Source: Escherichia coli (GTDB taxonomy: Bacteria > Pseudomonadota > Gammaproteobacteria > Enterobacterales > Enterobacteriaceae). From it: a stretch of 64,000 bases of DNA. The translations under genes and the position numbers were made by a program. Shown here piece after piece: positions 16,901-60,800 of the stretch. The first letter of the stretch is position 1. The number at the start of each line of letters is the position of its first letter. Where the stretch lies: assembly GCF_002854065.1 (NCBI RefSeq), contig NZ_CP024147.1, one strand, 5' to 3'. Below the pieces are notes generated by a model. The model searched no databases. It was given only the letters and a program-made list of their open reading frames with translations, and was not told where the DNA came from.

Positions 16901-17421
16901 TGAGTTATTCGCTGTATTCTTCCTGGGTAACCTGTGTTTCTTTTGGTGGGTTTATTCCGGCATCACGAATATTTTTCTGCACCGCTACTGCACCAAACAA
17001 GCTTAAGAAGAAAGCCAGTCCATAAAAACCTTTTTCGCTGAGTAATAATGTCGCATTCCACAGACCTACCATCAGTAATGCAACAGAGATAATAAAGACA
17101 GTCAGGCAGGTCATATAATAAATGGAAGTGGTCGGTATGCCTTCATACTTGTCCCGAACAGTCTTTTGATAAGACGCCGCAGAAAACAGTCCTAATACCA
17201 GTACGGCAAAATAATATCCTTTTTCATTTAACTGCATCTCTGCATTCCATAGCCCTAACAGATAGGTAACGATACCACCAACGAGAGCTATCCATGACAC
17301 AATACTAAAGGCCGGTGAATAGGTTGATATTAGACTGGCCCCCTGAATCTCCAGACAACCAATATCACTTAAATAAGTGATAGTCTTAATACTAGTTTTT
17401 AGACTAGTCATTGGAGAACAG

Positions 17422-17787
17422 ATGATTGATGTCTTAGGGCCGGAGAAACGCAGACGGCGTACCACACAGGAAAAGATCGCAATTGTTCAGCAGAGCTTTG
17501 AACCGGGGATGACGGTCTCCCTCGTTGCCCGGCAACATGGTGTAGCAGCCAGCCAGTTATTTCTCTGGCGTAAGCAATACCAGGAAGGAAGTCTTACTGC
17601 TGTCGCCGCCGGAGAACAGGTTGTTCCTGCCTCTGAACTTGCTGCCGCCATGAAGCAGATTAAAGAACTCCAGCGCCTGCTCGGCAAGAAAACGATGGAA
17701 AATGAACTCCTCAAAGAAGCCGTTGAATATGGACGGGCAAAAAAGTGGATAGCGCACGCGCCCTTATTGCCCGGGGATGGGGAGTAA
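17422..17787 (+). CDS. insC: IS2 InsC
   Basis: [56 protein letters not shown]... behind GGAGA. Recognised as IS2 OrfA. Confidence 0.95.
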
Positions 17788-18650
17788 GCTTAGTCAGCCG
17801 TTGTCTCCGGGTGTCGCGTGCGCAGTTGCACGTCATTCTCAGACGAACCGATGACTGGATGGATGGCCGCCGCAGTCGTCACACTGATGATACGGATGTG
17901 CTTCTCCGTATACACCATGTTATCGGAGAGCTGCCCACGTATGGTTATCGTCGGGTATGGGCGCTGCTTCGCAGACAGGCAGAACTTGATGGTATGCCTG
18001 CGATCAATGCCAAACGTGTTTACCGGATCATGCGCCAGAATGCGCTGTTGCTTGAGCGAAAACCTGCTGTACCGCCATCGAAACGGGCACATACAGGCAG
18101 AGTGGCCGTGAAAGAAAGCAATCAGCGATGGTGCTCTGACGGGTTCGAGTTCTGCTGTGATAACGGAGAGAGACTGCGTGTCACGTTCGCGCTGGACTGC
18201 TGTGATCGTGAGGCACTGCACTGGGCGGTCACTACCGGCGGCTTCAACAGTGAAACAGTACAGGACGTCATGCTGGGAGCGGTGGAACGCCGCTTCGGCA
18301 ACGATCTTCCGTCGTCTCCAGTGGAGTGGCTGACGGATAATGGTTCATGCTACCGGGCTAATGAAACACGCCAGTTCGCCCGGATGTTGGGACTTGAACC
18401 GAAGAACACGGCGGTGCGGAGTCCGGAGAGTAACGGAATAGCAGAGAGCTTCGTGAAAACGATAAAGCGTGACTACATCAGTATCATGCCCAAACCAGAC
18501 GGGTTAACGGCAGCAAAGAACCTTGCAGAGGCGTTCGAGCATTATAACGAATGGCATCCGCATAGTGCGCTGGGTTATCGCTCGCCACGGGAATATCTGC
18601 GGCAGCGGGCTTGTAATGGGTTAAGTGATAACAGATGTCTGGAAATATAG
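17745..18650 (+). CDS. insD: IS2 InsD frame (DDE integrase domain, made as an InsCD fusion by a -1 frameshift)
   Basis: ...WCSDGFEF...WLTDNGSCY...[11 protein letters not shown]... (DDE motif). The A6G slippery site is at 17739-17745. Confidence 0.93.
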
Positions 18651-18723
18651 GGGCAAATCCAGATATTTTGTTGTCCATCACAGTATTCCTTTCATTCCTG
18701 AATGTGTAAGAGCTTTATATTGC

Positions 18724-41337: not shown

Positions 41338-41421
41338 TGCCGGATGCGGCGTGTACGCCTTATCCGGCCTACGGTCAGGTCCCCGTAGGCATGATAAGAC
41401 GCGTAAGCGTCGCATCAGGCA
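41338..41421. repeat. BIME (two REP units) downstream of aldB
   Basis: TGCCGGATGCGGCGTGTACGCCTTATCCGGCCTAC ... GTAGGCATGATAAGACGCGTAAGCGTCGCATCAGGCA. Confidence 0.88.
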
Positions 41422-41451
41422 ATTAATACCCGATGCGACCAGCTTCTTACA

Positions 41452-42990
41452 TCAGAACAGCCCCAACGGTTTATCTGAGTAGCTCACCAGCAGGCACTTG
41501 GTTTGCTGGTAATGCTCCAGCATCATCTTGTGGGTTTCGCGTCCAATGCCTGATTGTTTGTAGCCGCCAAACGCCGCATGTGCCGGGTAAGCGTGATAAC
41601 AGTTGGTCCACACGCGCCCGGCCTGAATGCCGCGCCCCATCTTATAGGCCAGATTACCGTTGCGGCTCCAGACGCCTGCGCCCAGGCCATATTGCGTATC
41701 GTTCGCCAGCTCCAGCGCTTCTTCCATCGTTTTGAAGGTGGTCACCGCCAGCACCGGGCCAAAAATCTCTTCCTGGAACACCCGCATATTGTTCTGACCA
41801 AACAGAATCGTCGGTTCAAGGTAGTAGCCGTCTTTCAGTTCGCCTTCCAGCAGCTTGCGCCGCCCGCCGGTGAGCACGTCTGCGCCCTCTTTTTTACCGA
41901 TATCAATGTAGTTGAGGATGGTTTCCAGTTGCCCGTGAGAAACCTGCGCACCCATTTGCGTCACGCTGTCGAGTGGGTTACCGCTGCGAATGCTTTCGAC
42001 ACGGCGGATGGCGCGTTCCATAAAGCGTTCGTAGATTGACTCCTGCACTAAGGCACGACTCGGACAGGTGCAAACTTCGCCCTGGTTAAAGGCAAACAGT
42101 GCAAAGCCTTCCAGCGCTTTATCGAAAAAGGCATCTTCTTCATCCATCACATCAGCAAAGAAGATATTTGGCGACTTACCGCCCAACTCCAGCGTCACCG
42201 GAATAATGTTTTGCGTTGCGTATTGCATAATTTGTTGGCCCACTTCCGTTGAGCCGGTAAACGCCACTTTGGCGATGCGTTTCGAGGTCGCCAGATATTC
42301 GCCAATTTCCCCACCTGCGCCATTGACCACGTTCACCACGCCCGGCGGCAGTAAATCACCGACAATTTCCATTAGCAGCAGTACAGAAAGCGGGGTAAGA
42401 CGTGCGGGTTTCAGCACCACACAGTTGCCCGCCGCCAGCGCGGGAGCCATTTTCCAGCTCGCCATCAGCAGCGGGAAGTTCCACGGGATAATCTGCCCCA
42501 CCACGCCTAACGGTTCATGGAAATGATAGGCCACGGTTTCGCTATCAACTTCACTGATCCCACCTTCCTGCGCCCGAATACACGAGGCGAAATAGCGGAA
42601 ATGGTCAATCGCCAGCGGTACATCCGCAGCACTGGTTTCGCGAATGGGTTTGCCGTTATCCCAGGTTTCAGCTGTCGCTAACAGCTCGAGGTTTTGTTCC
42701 ATTCGATCGGCAATCTTAAACAGAATCGCCGCGCGATCCTGCACCGAGGTGTGCGCCCATTTATCTTTCACTTTGTGCGCAGCATCCAGCGCCAGATCGA
42801 TGTCTCGTTTGCCCGAAGACGCCACTTCGCACAGCAGCTGCCCGGTCACCGGCGTCAGGTTCTGGTAATACTCACCATCGGCAGGGGCTACCCATTCGCC
42901 GCCAATAAAGTTGTCATAGCGGTTTTTTAACTTGAGGGGGAAACCATACTCGCCGGGCTTAATCTGTGCTGAAGGGGGATTATTGGTCAT
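41452..42990 (-). CDS. aldB: Aldehyde dehydrogenase B
   Basis: [36 protein letters not shown]..., 512 aa, with ALDH motifs (ELGGKSP, catalytic Cys in GEVCTCPSR). Start trimmed to 42990. Confidence 0.95.
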
Positions 42991-43154
42991 GATCGTCTCC
43001 TTGCGGTGTGAGGTATAACAAGGGTAGACGTGACTGGCGAAATCTTCGCCAGTCGGTAACAGCTTTACGACAGCTATCACGAATTTACGGGCAAGGATTA
43101 CAGAGATAGTTGAAAAAGCGGCTGACAATTTGCCAGCCGTTGTTGGAATGATGA

Positions 43155-44167
43155 TTACATTGCGGCGCGATAAATCGCCACAATTTCTTCGTGAGTTGCC
43201 TGGATCGGGTTAGTAAAGCCACAGGCATCTTTCAGGGCATTAGTCGCCAGAACCGCGAAATCTTCTTCTTTCACGTTCAGGTCGCGTAGGCCTGCCGGGA
43301 TATCCACTTTCTTCGCCAGTTCACGGATGGCGTTAATGCAGGCTTCAGCACCTTCCGCGTCGTTTTTACCTGTCACGTTCACGCCCATTGCAGCGGCACA
43401 GTCACGCAGACGTGCAGCGGCGACTTTGCTGTTGAATACCTGAACATGCGGCAGCAGAACGGCGTTACATACACCGTGTGGCAGGTTGTAGAAACCGCCC
43501 AGCTGGTGCGCCATCGCATGAACATAACCCAGAGAAGCATTATTGAACGCCATACCGGCGAGGAACTGGGCATAAGCCATTGCTTCACGCGCTTTCGCAT
43601 TACTGCCATCTTCAACGGCTAACGGCAGGTTTTCGGCAATCATGGTCACGGCTTTCAGTGCACAAGCGTCAGTGATCGGCGTGGCGGCAATAGAAACATA
43701 CGCTTCGATAGCGTGCGTTAAGGCATCCATACCCGTTGCGGCGGTCAGTGACTTCGGCATACCAATCATCAGAGAGGAGTCATTGACAGAAAGCAGCGGA
43801 GTGACATGTTTATCAACAATCGCCATTTTGATATGACGCGCTTCGTCAGTGATGATGCAGAAACGGGTCATTTCAGAGGCCGTACCCGCCGTGGTATTGA
43901 TGGCGATCATCGGCAGCTGCGGTTTTGCAGAGCGGTCAACGCCTTCGTAATCGCGAATATCGCCGCCATTGGCTGCCACCAGCGCAATACCTTTTGCGCA
44001 GTCGTGCGGAGAACCACCGCCTAAGGAAATCACGCTATCGCAATTATTTTCTTTAAGTAATTTCAAACCTGCAGCGACGTTTTCCGTGGTGGGGTTAGGT
44101 TGGGTGCCATCATAAATAATGCTAAAAATATTGCGTTCTTCCAGTGCTTTTTGCACATCGCCCGCCA
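43155..44167 (-). pseudogene. yiaY: Fe-dependent alcohol dehydrogenase YiaY, 5'-truncated by IS1
   Basis: The reading frame abuts the IS1 end at 44167/44168 and begins ...[20 protein letters not shown].... By my recollection of K-12 YiaY, about 46 N-terminal codons and the promoter are missing. Confidence 0.85.
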
Positions 44168-44182
44168 GGTAATGACTCCAAC

Positions 44183-44686
44183 TTATTGATAGTGTTTTAT
44201 GTTCAGATAATGCCCGATGACTTTGTCATGCAGCTCCACCGATTTTGAGAACGACAGCGACTTCCGTCCCAGCCGTGCCAGGTGCTGCCTCAGATTCAGG
44301 TTATGCCGCTCAATTCGCTGCGTATATCGCTTGCTGATTACGTGCAGCTTTCCCTTCAGGCGGGATTCATACAGCGGCCAGCCATCCGTCATCCATATCA
44401 CCACGTCAAAGGGTGACAGCAGGCTCATAAGACGCCCCAGCGTCGCCATAGTGCGTTCACCGAATACGTGCGCAACAACCGTCTTCCGGAGACTGTCATA
44501 CGCGTAAAACAGCCAGCGCTGGCGCGATTTAGCCCCGACATAGCCCCACTGTTCGTCCATTTCCGCGCAGACGATGACGTCACTGCCCGGCTGTATGCGC
44601 GAGGTTACCGACTGCGGCCTGAGTTTTTTAAGTGACGTAAAATCGTGTTGAGGCCAACGCCCATAATGCGGGCAGTTGCCCGGCAT
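44183..44686 (-). CDS. insB: IS1 insB' frame (copy A)
   Basis: 167-aa frame identical to that of copy 1. Confidence 0.9.
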
Positions 44687-44880
44687 CCAACGCCATTCAT
44701 GGCCATATCAATGATTTTCTGGTGCGTACCGGGTTGAGAAGCGGTGTAAGTGAACTGCAGTTGCCATGTTTTACGGCAGTGAGAGCAGAGATAGCGCTGA
44801 TGTCCGGCGGTGCTTTTGCCGTTACGCACCACCCCGTCAGTAGCTGAACAGGAGGGACAGCTGATAGAAACAGAAGCCAC
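44605..44880 (-). CDS. insA: IS1 InsA (copy A)
   Basis: 91 aa, identical to the InsA of copy 1. Confidence 0.95.
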
Positions 44881-44963
44881 TGGAGCACCTCAAAAACACC
44901 ATCATACACTAAATCAGTAAGTTGGCAGCATCACCTATTATTGTTTAGCAAAATTAATCTAAT

Positions 44964-45003
44964 AAAAAGCACATTGTATTCATTAAACAATGTGCTTTTT
45001 TTA
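44964..45003. terminator. Bidirectional hairpin terminator in the 85-bp spacer between the two IS1 copies (original selB terminator)
   Basis: AAAAAGCACATTGT (44965-44978) / ACAATGTGCTTTTT (44988-45001), flanked by an A-run and a T-run. Confidence 0.75.
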
Positions 45004-45035
45004 AAATCATAAGAATTTTGGGTAATGACTCCAAC

Positions 45036-45539
45036 TTATTGATAGTGTTTTATGTTCAGATAATGCCCGATGACTTTGTCATGCAGCTCCACCGATTTTG
45101 AGAACGACAGCGACTTCCGTCCCAGCCGTGCCAGGTGCTGCCTCAGATTCAGGTTATGCCGCTCAATTCGCTGCGTATATCGCTTGCTGATTACGTGCAG
45201 CTTTCCCTTCAGGCGGGATTCATACAGCGGCCAGCCATCCGTCATCCATATCACCACGTCAAAGGGTGACAGCAGGCTCATAAGACGCCCCAGCGTCGCC
45301 ATAGTGCGTTCACCGAATACGTGCGCAACAACCGTCTTCCGGAGCCTGTCATACGCGTAAAACAGCCAGCGCTGGCGCGATTTAGCCCCGACGTATCCCC
45401 ACTGTTCGTCCATTTCCGCGCAGACGATGACGTCACTGCCCGGCTGTATGCGCGAGGTTACCGACTGCGGCCTGAGTTTTTTAAATGGCGGAAAATCGTG
45501 TTGAGGCCAACGCCCATAATGCGGGCGGTTGCCCGGCAT
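45036..45539 (-). CDS. insB: IS1 insB' frame (copy B)
   Basis: 167-aa frame with several substitutions relative to copy A. Confidence 0.9.
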
Positions 45540-45733
45540 CCAACGCCATTCATGGCCATATCAATGATTTTCTGGTGCGTACCGGGTTGAGAAGCGGTGT
45601 AAGTGAACTGCAGTTGCCATGTTTTACGGCAGTGAGAGCAGAGATAGCGCTGATGTCCGGCAGTGCTTTTGCCGTTACGCACCACCCCATCAGTAGCTGA
45701 ACAGGAGGGACAGCTGATAGAAACAGAAGCCAC
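45458..45733 (-). CDS. insA: IS1 InsA (copy B)
   Basis: 91 aa, with one substitution relative to copy A. Confidence 0.95.
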
Positions 45734-45831
45734 TGGAGCACCTCAAAAACACCATCATACACTAAATCAGTAAGTTGGCAGCATCACCGAATTTTGTATT
45801 AATTTATTTTAAAACTTAATTAATCATTTCC

Positions 45832-47676
45832 TTATTTTTCCGGAAATAATAATGCGTCGCGCAATAAATGATCATTTCCACGACGACGCGTAAAGCCAAT
45901 GCGGTCAAAATATTCCAGGATTTGAATCGCCAGTTTTCGCCCAACCCCTAAGCGATCGCGGAAATCCGCCGCGCAGGTTGAACCACATTCCTGATCGAGA
46001 TCGCGGATCATATTGGCAAACTCGACAATCCGATCGTTACGGTAATAACGATCTTTGACGATCGCGGTAATTATCCCCTGTTGGGCCGCCTGGCGTAGCG
46101 TCAGACGCATTGCCTGCTCGTCGGTTCCCGTCTCTTTTGCCAGGTCACGCACCCACCACGGTTCGTCACCAAACAGCGGCTCTGCTTTTTGCCAGATGGC
46201 CTGCTGCTCTTCGCTGAAGCCCGCTTTGTGATCCGGCAGATGCAGCCAACCGTGATGACTGAGGATGTCGCCGCTTTCGCGCATCTTTTCAATCAGCAAC
46301 AGTACCAGCGCTTCATCTTCCATTGGCAACGCCATACGTCGCAGACGTTCGCGCCCAGGACCAGGTTCATCGCGATGTTGCTCATGATAAGTCGCTAATG
46401 TGTCGAGAATTTTCCGCTGCCAGCGGGCGGCAACTGGCGCATTCAACAAGCTATAACCAGCCTGAATATAGCCCGGCTGTTGCAGTAGTTCGCGCATCCC
46501 TTCGCCGTTGAGCTGGCGTGCCCAGGCGAAATCCGCAAGGTTAACCGCTCCGCGTTCCAGATGAACAGATAACGCATCGGCATCGCTCTGCGCCCGTGCA
46601 AGAGACGCCAGCCATTGCAGATATTCCGGCTTACGTTTACCGCGACGCGGCGGGTTAAGCATCACCACACGTGCCCCCGCCAGCGTATTGCGGGCCGAGA
46701 TATCGCGCAACACTAAGCGATCGTTATCCGCCAGCCACAGCGGCGTGTCGAACACCAGCTCGGCAAGGTTATCTTCCAGCAGCGAAACGCGTCCCGTAAC
46801 GTGGCTGGCGGCGTGGTGAATATGCAGCGGCTGCCACTGGGTCAGCGGCGTATGGGTTTGAAGCTCGACAATCACCCGCGTGAACGGCTCTGGCGGCACA
46901 TCGGCAAGCAGCCAGTCGCCACGGTTAATCTGCTCTTTTTCCGCATCCCCCGCGATGTTAAGCGCGATACGCTGGCCGGCATGAGCGGTTTCTGTTGGCT
47001 GGTTTTGTGCATGCAGCGCACGTACACGCATCGGTTTATTTACACCAGTCAGCCATAGTGAATCGCCTACCGTCACTTCCCCGCTTAACGCCGTACCGGT
47101 GACGACCAGCCCGGCACCTTTTACGGTAAATGCGCGGTCGATCGCGAGGCGGAAACTATGTTGGCTGGCGTGTTCACGTTCTGGTAACTGAAGCAGATGC
47201 TCGCGCAGGGCATCAATTCCCCGACCCTCGGTTGCTGCGGTGATAAACAGTTTTGCCTCAGCAAAACCGTATTCCCGCAGCACCTCCTTTACCTGGCGTT
47301 CAACCTCATTAACACGCGCTTCGTCCACGCGATCGGCTTTGGTCAGCGCCACTGTCAGCATCGGGTTACCGGTCAGCTGCAAAATCGCCAGATGCTCACG
47401 GGTCTGTGCCATCACACCGTCATCGCACGCCACCACCAACAGCGCGTGATCGATACCACCAACGCCCGCCAGCATGTTGGAAAGAAACTTTTCATGACCG
47501 GGTACGTCGATAAAACCAGGCACGCGACCATCCGGCTGCGGCCAGTAGGCATAGCCGAGATCGATGGTCATGCCGCGCTTTTTTTCTTCCGGCAGACGAT
47601 CGGCATTTACGCCAGTAATCGCCTGCAATAAGGTTGTTTTGCCGTGGTCAACGTGTCCGGCAGTCGCAATAATCAT
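45832..47676 (-). CDS. selB: Selenocysteine-specific translation elongation factor
   Basis: 614 aa, [45 protein letters not shown]..., recognised as SelB. Confidence 0.96.
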
Positions 47677-57897: not shown

Positions 57898-60800
57898 ATG
57901 AACAAAATATTTAAAGTAATCTGGAATCCGGCGACGGGCAGTTATAGCGTTGCCAGCGAAACGGCGAAGAGCCGTGGTAAGAAATCTGGTCGCAGTAAGC
58001 TGTTAATTTCTGCACTGGTTGCGGGTGGAATGTTGTCGTCGTTTGGGGCAAATGCCAGTGCGACACTTGATGGAGGTTCATCTATTGAAGACCCATCAAT
58101 GGGTACTCGCTGGCTTGCAATCGGTGAGGGCGCAAAAGCAACATCCGCGTTACAAGGTGATGGATATACCGTTGCGATAGGGCTTAATGCACTAGCAGAT
58201 GGTCAGGGTAGTCTTGCATTCGGCTACGATACCCACTCATCGGGTGATCGTTCTATCTCTATTGGCCAATATGCTGAATCCGCAGGAAACAGAACCATTG
58301 CTTTCGGTAGTGGGTCCAAGGCAATAGGAGACTATTCGCTTGCATTAGGAGGAACTACCTATACAGGTGGTGACTACTCCATTGCAGTGGGTAGGGATTC
58401 GAGGGTAGAAGACGATGCTGATTACGCCTCCTCTTTTGGTTACGGCGCCAAGGCAGGCGGGGTCTATAGCATGGCATTCGGTTTCGAAACTAAAGCTAAT
58501 GCCGTTGACAGCCTGGCAATGGGACGACTAGCTACAGCCAGTGCAGCAAACGCTATTGCGATAGGTGCAGAGGCTGAAGCCGCTGAAAATGCGATGGCTA
58601 TTGGCAATAATGCGAAGGCAAAAGGGACTAATAGCATGGCAATGGGGTTCGGAAGCCACGCCGATAAAGTCAATACTATCGCATTAGGAAATGGCAGCCA
58701 GGCTCTGGCAGATAATGCAATCGCCATAGGCCAGGGCAACAAAGCTGATGGCGTGGATGCCATCGCTCTGGGTAATGGTAGCCAGTCGAGAGGCTTAAAC
58801 ACCATTGCCTTAGGCACAGCCAGTAATGCAACTGGTGATAAGAGTCTTGCGCTTGGTAGTGATACCACTGCCAACGGTATTAACTCCGTCGCATTGGGTG
58901 CAGGTTCCACTGCGGATTTAGACAATACCGTCTCTGTCGACAATAGTTCATTAAAACGCAAGATCGTTAATGTGAAAAATGGCGCGATCAAGTCTGACAG
59001 TTACGATGCCATTAATGGTTCACAGCTTTATGCCATTAGCGACTCGGTAGCACAAAGGCTTGGGGGAGGATCATCAGTAGATGTTGATGACGGTACTGTT
59101 ACAGCACCAACCTACAATTTAAAAAATGGTAGCAAAAAGAACGTAGGGGCTGCGCTCACTGTACTTGATGAAAACACCCTGCAATGGGACCAAATCAAAG
59201 GCAAATACAGCGCTGCTCATGGTACTAGTAGCCCAACTGCCAGCGTAATCACCGATGTTGCGGATGGCACGATTTCAGCCTCCAGTAAGGAGGCGGTTAA
59301 CGGCTCCCAACTGCAAGCTACCAATGACGATGTTGAGGCCAACACCACCAATATCACCAACCTGACGGATTCCGTTGGTGACCTTCAGGCTGATGCCCTG
59401 CTCTGGAACGAAACTAAAAAGGCATTCAGTGCAGCTCACGGCCAGGATACCACCAGCAAAATCACCAACGTTAAAGATGGCGACCTGACGGCTGGCAGCA
59501 CTGATGCCGTTAACGGCTCTCAGCTGAAAACCACCAACGATGCTGTGGCGACGAATACCACCAATATCGCCAATAACACTTCCAATATTGCCACTAACAC
59601 CACCAACATCTCTAACCTGACTGAGACGGTGACTAACCTTGGTGAAGATGCGCTGAAATGGGATAAGGACAATTGTGTCTTCACGGCAGCTCATGGCACC
59701 GATGCCACCAGCAAAATCACCAATGTTAAAGATGGCGACCTGACGGCTGGCAGCACTGATGCCGTTAACGGCTCTCAGCTGAAAACTACCAACGATGCTG
59801 TGGCGACGAATACCACCAATATCGCCAATAACACTTCCAATATTGCCACTAACTCCACCAACATCTCTAACCTGACTGAGACGGTGACTAATCTTGGTGA
59901 GGATGCTCTGAAATGGGATAAGGACAATGGTGTCTTCACGGCAGCTCACGGCACCGAGGCCACCAGCAAAATCACCAACGTTAAAGATGCCGACCTGACG
60001 GCTGACAGCACCGATGCCGTTAACGGCTCTCAGCTGAAAACCACCAACGATGCCGTGGCGACGAATACCACCAATATCGCCACTAACACTTCCAATATTG
60101 CCACTAACACCACCAACATCTCTAACCTGACTGAGACGGTGACTAACCTTGGTGAAGATGCGCTGAAATGGGATAAGGACAATGGTGTATTCACGGCAGC
60201 TCACGGCACAGAAGCCACCAGCAAAATCACCAACGTTAAAGATGCCGACCTGACGGCTGGCAGCACTGATGCCGTTAACGGCTCCCAGCTGAAAACCACC
60301 AACGATGCTGTGGCGACGAATACCACCAATATTGCCACTAACACCACCAACATCTCTAACCTGACTGAGACGGTGACTAATCTTGGTGAGGATGCGCTGA
60401 AATGGGATAAGGACAATGGTGTATTCACGGCAGCTCATGGCAACAACACCGCCAGCAAAATCACCAATATCCTGGACGGCACAGTCACTGCAACCAGTTC
60501 CGATGCCATTAACGGCAGCCAGCTTTATGACTTAAGCAGCAATATCGCCACCTACTTCGGCGGCAATGCTTCTGTGAATACTGACGGTGTGTTTACCGGT
60601 CCAACCTACAAAATCGGTGAAACAAATTATTATAACGTCGGCGATGCACTGGCTGCGATTAACTCCTCATTTAGCACGTCTCTCGGCGATGCCCTGCTTT
60701 GGGACGCTTCCGTAGATAAATTTAGTGCCAAACACGGTACTAATGGTGACGCAAGCGTGATCACTGATGTCGCAAACGGGGATGTTTCAAGCACAAGCTC

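Follow-up and report, generated by a model that had tools for sequence, protein, structure and literature searches.

Two IS1 isoforms in direct orientation between selB and yiaY of an Escherichia coli chromosome: a simple insertion and an IS1-associated 208-bp deletion that truncates yiaY

The window described here is a stretch of 64,000 nucleotides of an Escherichia coli chromosome (contig NZ_CP024147.1 of assembly GCF_002854065.1), in which the region between selB and yiaY carries two complete copies of the insertion sequence (IS) IS1, in direct orientation, referred to as IS1-A (44168-44935, - strand) and IS1-B (45021-45788, - strand). The explanation that is somewhat favoured for the locus as a whole combines a simple insertion of IS1-B with an insertion of IS1-A into yiaY that was followed by an adjacent deletion. 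According to this explanation two IS1 variants would have landed in the AT-rich selB-yiaY junction region of a chromosome with recent IS gains. The IS1B-type copy would have entered by simple insertion, with an 8-bp duplication, 43 nt past the selB stop codon and 17 nt before a terminator-like hairpin. The IS1A-type copy probably first entered a recurrent target in yiaY (duplication CGCCCGCCA, codons 44-47), after which the DNA at the left inverted repeat (IRL) end of IS1-A would have been lost up to a point 69 bp before the yiaY start, in AT-rich sequence, most likely through an adjacent deletion mediated by the IS1 transposase (intramolecular transposition).

Both elements are complete, with a length of 768 bp. 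The + strand of each copy opens with GGTAATGACTCCAACTTATTGAT and closes with ...AGTAAGTTGGCAGCATCACC, which are the right and the left IS1 inverted repeats, respectively, and the transposase genes are therefore on the - strand, like selB, selA, and yiaY. These terminal inverted repeats are about 23 bp long and imperfect (GGTGATGCTGCCAACTTACTGAT / GGTAATGACTCCAACTTATTGAT), both ends being present in IS1-A as well as in IS1-B, and IS1 ends occur three times in the window versus not at all in 100 shuffles. The IRL end of IS1-A points towards selB, and its right inverted repeat (IRR) end abuts yiaY; IS1-B has the orientation of selB and lies between the selB stop codon and the hairpin. Each copy encodes an intact InsA of 91 aa (insA at 44605-44880 in IS1-A and at 45458-45733 in IS1-B) and an intact insB' frame of 167 aa (44183-44686 and 45036-45539), all on the - strand. 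The insB' frame overlaps insA, and a -1 frameshift is expected at the A6C motif, TTAAAAAAC, which is found at IS1 nt 305 in both elements. The Pfam families PF03811, PF12759, and PF03400 (the InsA zinc ribbon, the InsA HTH, and the IS1 DDE domain) are matched over their full length in both copies, with E-values from 1e-21 to 1e-78.

When the region 42800-46200 is read together with a repeat search, the two copies are found in direct orientation, 853 bp from start to start, with a spacer of 85 bp (44936-45020) that is native selB-yiaY intergenic DNA and includes the left copy of the IS1-B duplication. IS1-A and IS1-B differ at nine positions (98.8% identity), and the longest exact run shared between them is 324 bp. 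IS1-A matches many E. coli copies of the annotated IS1A family at 100% identity, and IS1-B matches annotated IS1B-family copies at 99.9-100%. This assignment supports the view that the two elements are different natural isoforms that arrived separately, neither having been copied from the other. These data are in agreement with a preliminary description of the locus, which had reported two nonidentical direct IS1 copies as independent arrivals: all its coordinates for the two elements agree with those given here, and the peptide strings by which it had told the copies apart are found as described, NCPHY/FTSLKK in the insB' frame of IS1-A and NRPHY/FPPFKK in that of IS1-B.

The flanks of IS1-B are those of a simple insertion. 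The 8-bp sequence GAATTTTG is present on both sides of the element (45013-45020 and 45789-45796), and it occurs once in the IS-free reference locus (L001 5799-5806), in which the sequence is continuous across the IS1-B insertion point. The 120 bp made up of the 85-bp spacer and the 35 bp beyond the right copy of the duplication are identical to the reference intergenic region at 120 of 120 positions. From these comparisons it is concluded that IS1-B is a simple insertion, as had also been proposed in the preliminary description. An 8-bp duplication is the minor class for IS1. Eleven other strains, one of them with two copies, were surveyed for simple IS1 insertions at this locus, and of the 12 insertions 11 have a duplication of 9 bp and one has a duplication of 8 bp. 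The neighboring selB gene (45832-47676, - strand) is intact, with 614 aa; its open reading frame ends at 45832, so that 43 nt lie between its stop codon and IS1-B, as had been noted before. The hairpin follows 17 nt beyond the element. The selA gene is intact as well (463 aa). An exact look-up of SelB gave 300 blocks of the public collection, in which the locus is IS-free or rearranged in another way.

The geometry at IS1-A is different, as its flanks, CGCCCGCCA and TATTATTGT (left ...CATCGCCCGCCA, right TATTATTGT...), do not form a duplication. The boundaries of IS1-A are fixed, because all its 768 bp match those of IS1-C, another copy found in the window and cleanly bounded by a 9-bp duplication, and no duplication emerges on redrawing them. 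On the yiaY side, the remnant of this gene (43155-44167, - strand; L-threonine dehydrogenase, Fe-ADH family) extends from codon 47 to the stop codon and is identical to yiaY of E. coli 100416 at 1013 of 1013 positions. Alignment with the IS-free intergenic sequence of this strain gives the size of the deletion: exactly 208 bp are absent beside IS1-A, comprising 139 nt from the 5' end of yiaY and the 69 nt that precede its start codon, with an ambiguity of 2 bp (TA) at the deletion boundary. The loss of 139 nt of yiaY places the junction in codon 47. The retained 1,013 bp on the yiaY side and 120 bp on the selB side are 100% identical to 100416. The loss of these 208 bp accounts for the missing duplication of IS1-A.

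Of 5,426 complete E. coli genomes, 5,362 retain the 208 bp deleted here, which makes their absence a derived state; the yiaY part that has been kept (43155-44167) is present in 5,368 of the 5,426. A yiaY gene that naturally starts at the junction is not what is seen in E. coli, where the full-length protein of 383 aa is the norm: in 100416 and in K-12 MC1061 the intact gene has 1,152 nt and selB is located 189 bp upstream, on the same strand. The Pfam Fe-ADH match of the remnant begins at profile position 44 of 168, whereas that of the intact protein begins at position 1. Since the start codon and the ribosome-binding region have been lost, together with the first 46 codons and 69 upstream bases, yiaY is a pseudogene in this strain. 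Thus, the proposal of an IS1-associated deletion at a copy lacking a duplication is borne out by the missing 208 bp and their wide distribution in other genomes; the further statement that the yiaY start and promoter were removed holds for the start, as 139 nt of the gene and 69 nt upstream of it are absent, and for the promoter it stays at the level of a suggestion. In Shigella flexneri, yiaY has been described as anaerobically induced in an FNR-dependent manner (PMC4229854). A scan of the selB-yiaY spacer for FNR boxes gave only matches with three mismatches, none of them convincing.

The yiaY-side junction of IS1-A coincides with a target that has been used by IS1 independently elsewhere. 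An IS1 copy in the 5' end of yiaY or in the selB-yiaY spacer is found in 18 of the 5,426 complete E. coli genomes, and in the 13 of these that were inspected all are simple insertions. A preference of IS1 for one orientation at this locus was examined as well and dismissed, since 11 of the 18 genomes carry the element in the orientation seen here and 7 carry it inverted. The strains PS2Canimalfeces3 and MB07152 have a simple IS1 insertion at the exact position of the IS1-A/yiaY junction, in opposite orientation and with the 9-bp duplication CGCCCGCCA, and their local backgrounds differ at 44 of 3,160 bases; in strain I3 the insertion is 1 bp from this junction. Together with the present window these three strains define the first of two recurrent targets within L001 5504-5525 (corresponding to window positions 44159-44167 and the deleted bases beyond), with CGCCCGCCA or TCACCCGCC as the duplication. 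The second target is located 12 bp further and ends at L001 5525; RS571 has an insertion there with an 8-bp duplication, 22F46 and 23CRST022 have insertions with 9-bp duplications, and GZ2408P probably has one as well. In E. coli E3 (L022, NZ_CM130010.1), two IS1B copies in inverted orientation are found inside yiaY, each with a 9-bp duplication.

It is conceivable, on balance with somewhat more doubt than confidence, that the yiaY 5' end and the selB-yiaY spacer are a true IS1 hot spot across E. coli, in which IS1 has entered one target on at least four independent occasions and another target lies 12 bp away. Such a hot spot could result from a local DNA feature that is read by the transposase or from repeated selection for the loss of yiaY, and the activity of IS1-B would then be tied to the expression of the selenocysteine operon.

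With respect to the origin of the deletion, the sequence alone is compatible both with transposition and with recombination between two IS1 copies, and adjacent deletion is favoured as the most economical and most likely route. Adjacent deletions by intramolecular transposition of IS1 have reportedly been documented, by Reif and Saedler in 1975 and by Turlan and Chandler in 1995. For such an event, the precursor state would be one in which the IRL end of IS1 is joined to CGCCCGCCATACC. Recombination, if true, would imply a second parental IS1 with its IRR end joined to ...ATGATCAG: two direct copies with 208 bp between them, the first located at yiaY codon 47 and the second 69 bp before the start codon, would have undergone a RecA-dependent crossover that removed one copy and the intervening DNA, leaving IS1-A with one flank from each parent. 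This is a serious proposal, if an unlikely one. The present locus shows that two direct IS1 copies can persist here with less than 100 bp between them, and the region of about 300 bp has repeatedly been hit by IS1 elsewhere, as exemplified by strain E3 with its two copies in yiaY. Missing duplications have been attributed to adjacent deletion or to IS-IS recombination (PMC11708052), the latter being a recognised cause of their absence (PMC11708052, PMC7373316). Nevertheless, 0 of the 18 E. coli genomes with an IS1 in the interval have a copy at the intergenic junction (L001 5722), and IS1-A is of pure IS1A type with no IS1B mosaic, which would need either two parents of the IS1A type or a crossover in an invariant stretch. 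Moreover, two insertions and a recombination would be required, as against one insertion and one transposase event. A one-step event, in which the ends of an incoming IS1 were joined to targets 208 bp apart and a duplication was never made, is regarded as improbable. The sequence at IS1-A is compatible with such an event; to our knowledge, no one-step insertion with deletion has been documented for IS1. Deletion-coupled, duplication-free movements have been proposed for other IS families, but in the long-term evolution lines the IS insertion had come first, and the adjacent deletion second, in 14 of 14 cases of an IS with a deletion (PMC11708052).

The favoured sequence of an IS1-A insertion in yiaY followed by an adjacent deletion also has points that weigh against it. 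No sibling of the same lineage having a simple IS1 at yiaY codon 47 together with the intact 5' fragment was found, and the order of the events and the mechanism of the deletion are therefore deduced from the final state; the sole sibling contig that was found (SRR23696841) already has the IS1-A/yiaY junction. The target preference would fit equally well if an IS1 located first in the intergenic region had attacked the yiaY site intramolecularly, and as attack from either side is accommodated, it does not fix which end of IS1-A is the original one. In addition, the read-through of selAB transcripts discussed below, its end point, and any effect on the SelB level are deduced from the positions of the elements. 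Finally, it is very unlikely that the tandem pair or the deletion is an assembly artefact made from misassembled IS1 reads. Multicopy IS1 is prone to collapse and misjoining, and the collections searched hold no exact match of the double-IS1 structure: with both junction probes no full match is obtained in complete E. coli genomes, and the exact junction patterns have 0 matches in GTDB species representatives and 0 in JGI metagenome contigs. Exact-protein look-ups of the 333-aa yiaY remnant, of its 346-aa edge version, and of a 47-aa lpfB fragment gave no match. Against an artefact stand the nine differences, which match two natural isoforms, the spacer and flanks, which are 100% identical to and collinear with the reference, and the proper duplication of IS1-B. 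The Logan contig SRR23696841, found by exact look-up of a 345-aa edge version of the yiaY remnant, is an independent short-read contig that matches window positions 41394-44194 with 0 mismatches in 2,801 bp and runs from yiaY codon 47 into 27 nt of the IS1 end. This junction, together with the short-read contigs that end in IS1-C (described below), is what makes an artefact so unlikely.

A deletion of a related kind is seen at the same locus in a close relative, CP182139.1, of which the selA-selB region differs from that of 100416 at 3 bases in 7.9 kb. In this genome one duplication-free IS1 (L013 8050-8817) replaces 5,692 bp, from yiaY codon 6 into yiaU, with removal of yiaY, aldB, yiaW, yiaV, and part of yiaU. 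Clearly, IS1-associated deletions recur here.

Outside IS1-C, an IS2 element, IS1-A with its deletion, and IS1-B, the window follows E. coli 100416 collinearly over its whole length, with 99.94-100% identity. IS1-C (461-1228) is identical to IS1-A over 768 bp and opposite to it in orientation; it has the 9-bp duplication CGGTCAGCG and lies within lpfB, a fimbrial chaperone gene that it disrupts. A 43-aa lpfB fragment led to four public contigs, from short reads or metagenomes, that end in IS1-C within lpfB, two of the four with 0 mismatches. Public read sets with IS1-C or the IS1-A junction are SRR23696841, ERR3970133, and SRR29467351. The IS2 element (17331-18661; 1,331 bp) has a 5-bp duplication, GATAT, in the 5' end of yiaA and is absent from 100416. 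Four IS insertions within 64 kb relative to a nearly identical genome indicate a recent burst of IS activity. Two further differences from 100416 were seen in the window. The aldB gene (41452-42990) is intact here, coding for 512 aa, and this exact AldB is found in 6,094 blocks; aldB of 100416 has an internal stop. A YadA-like adhesin gene (59339-60468) has tandem repeats of about 255 bp, with a small length difference from 100416 at about 59340-59355.

On the selB side, the 85-bp spacer contains an inverted repeat (44964-45003) with the shape of a bidirectional terminator: a 9-bp GC-containing core stem extended by A/U pairs, a loop of 9 nt, and T runs on both strands. When folded over 44964-45000, the hairpin reaches -19.1 kcal/mol on the selB (-) strand (z -5.6, with 0 of 200 shuffles as good), where it is followed by UUUUUAUUAG; on the + strand the value is -15.9 kcal/mol (z about -5.5, with no shuffle as good). 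It is the only strong hairpin of the 189-bp selB-yiaY intergenic region, and from its shape and position it is presumed to be the selAB terminator. The consensus terminator scanner that was used has a loop limit of 8 nt and missed this hairpin because its loop has 9 nt; the hairpin was judged by folding. Rfam gave no match in 42800-46300. In another genome, a short-read contig with identical SelB (L014, GCA_965266025.1) stops inside the loop of the terminator hairpin, 75 bp past the selB stop codon, pointing to a possible further repeat or inserted IS at this position.

In IS-free genomes the hairpin is located about 60 nt past the selB stop codon, and here the 768-bp IS1-B intervenes. Along the - strand, the order is the selB stop codon, 43 nt, IS1-B with its left end first, 17 nt, the hairpin, 28 nt, IS1-A with its left end first, and yiaY from codon 47. 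The consensus scan finds no terminator-like site on the selB strand in the 43-nt gap or inside IS1, and the earlier statement that selB has been separated from its terminator is thus true by geometry. Given this geometry, with no intervening terminator, selAB transcripts would have to enter IS1-B, in the sense direction. They may end by Rho-dependent termination within IS1 or at the native hairpin, about 0.85 kb further, which precedes IS1-A on any transcript that passes through IS1-B. IS1 insertions are polar via Rho-dependent termination, and an internal terminator in IS1 is said to have been described by Huebner, Iida and Arber in 1987. It is possible that the read-through changes the stability of the selB mRNA as well as the activity of IS1-B. 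Upstream transcription has been found to stimulate insAB' transcription and IS1 transposition (PMC12428005), and sense read-through is summarised there as repressing IS1 cointegration (Machida et al. 1983, cited in PMC12428005).

The direct IS1-A and IS1-B copies could also recombine with each other, which would delete 853 bp including the terminator. The 853-bp unit had been pointed out before as a recombination substrate, and the 85-bp gap, the direct orientation, the 98.8% identity, and the 324-bp exact run are all consistent with this. The locus would thus be unstable, and a collapse by 853 bp would remove the terminator too. All the features of the locus are standard IS1 biology that is already known, namely, isoforms, a simple insertion, a deletion that makes a pseudogene, and a recombinable direct repeat, and the only mildly notable addition is the nucleotide-precise recurrence of IS1 in yiaY of unrelated strains. 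The significance is mainly one of annotation, as yiaY is to be marked as a pseudogene in this strain. Besides this, the altered 3' end of selAB has a possible effect on the SelB level and hence on the formate dehydrogenase selenoproteins. The locus is a further case in which IS1 has caused the loss of a gene in an E. coli lineage rich in IS elements, and it points to a target in yiaY that IS1 can use repeatedly and with precision; it opens no new question.

When compared with IS1A and IS1B of E. coli K-12, the elements IS1-A and IS1-B have the same length of 768 bp, the same terminal repeats, the same insA/insB' organization and A6C site, and duplications within the same 8-9 bp class; in themselves they are no different, and what is strain-specific is their position alone. 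As in Tn9-type composite transposons, two direct and intact IS1 copies flank a short segment. The 85-bp 'passenger' is, however, native DNA in place, being continuous with the flank through the IS1-B duplication. The arrival of a Tn9-like composite as a unit was therefore rejected, since the spacer is native and in its original place, in favor of two separate insertions. The classical IS1 adjacent deletions of the gal and Tn9 systems, as well as IS-IS deletions, share with the present locus a single duplication-free IS that borders missing host DNA and of which one flank is an ordinary insertion site. With 208 bp, the present deletion is a small one. Pseudogenes made by IS elements are common in Shigella and in enteroinvasive E. 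coli (PMC7373316). The window resembles these in its high load of IS1 and IS2 and in the inactivation of metabolic and fimbrial genes (yiaY, lpfB, and yiaA), a likeness that concerns the IS pattern and not an assignment of pathotype.

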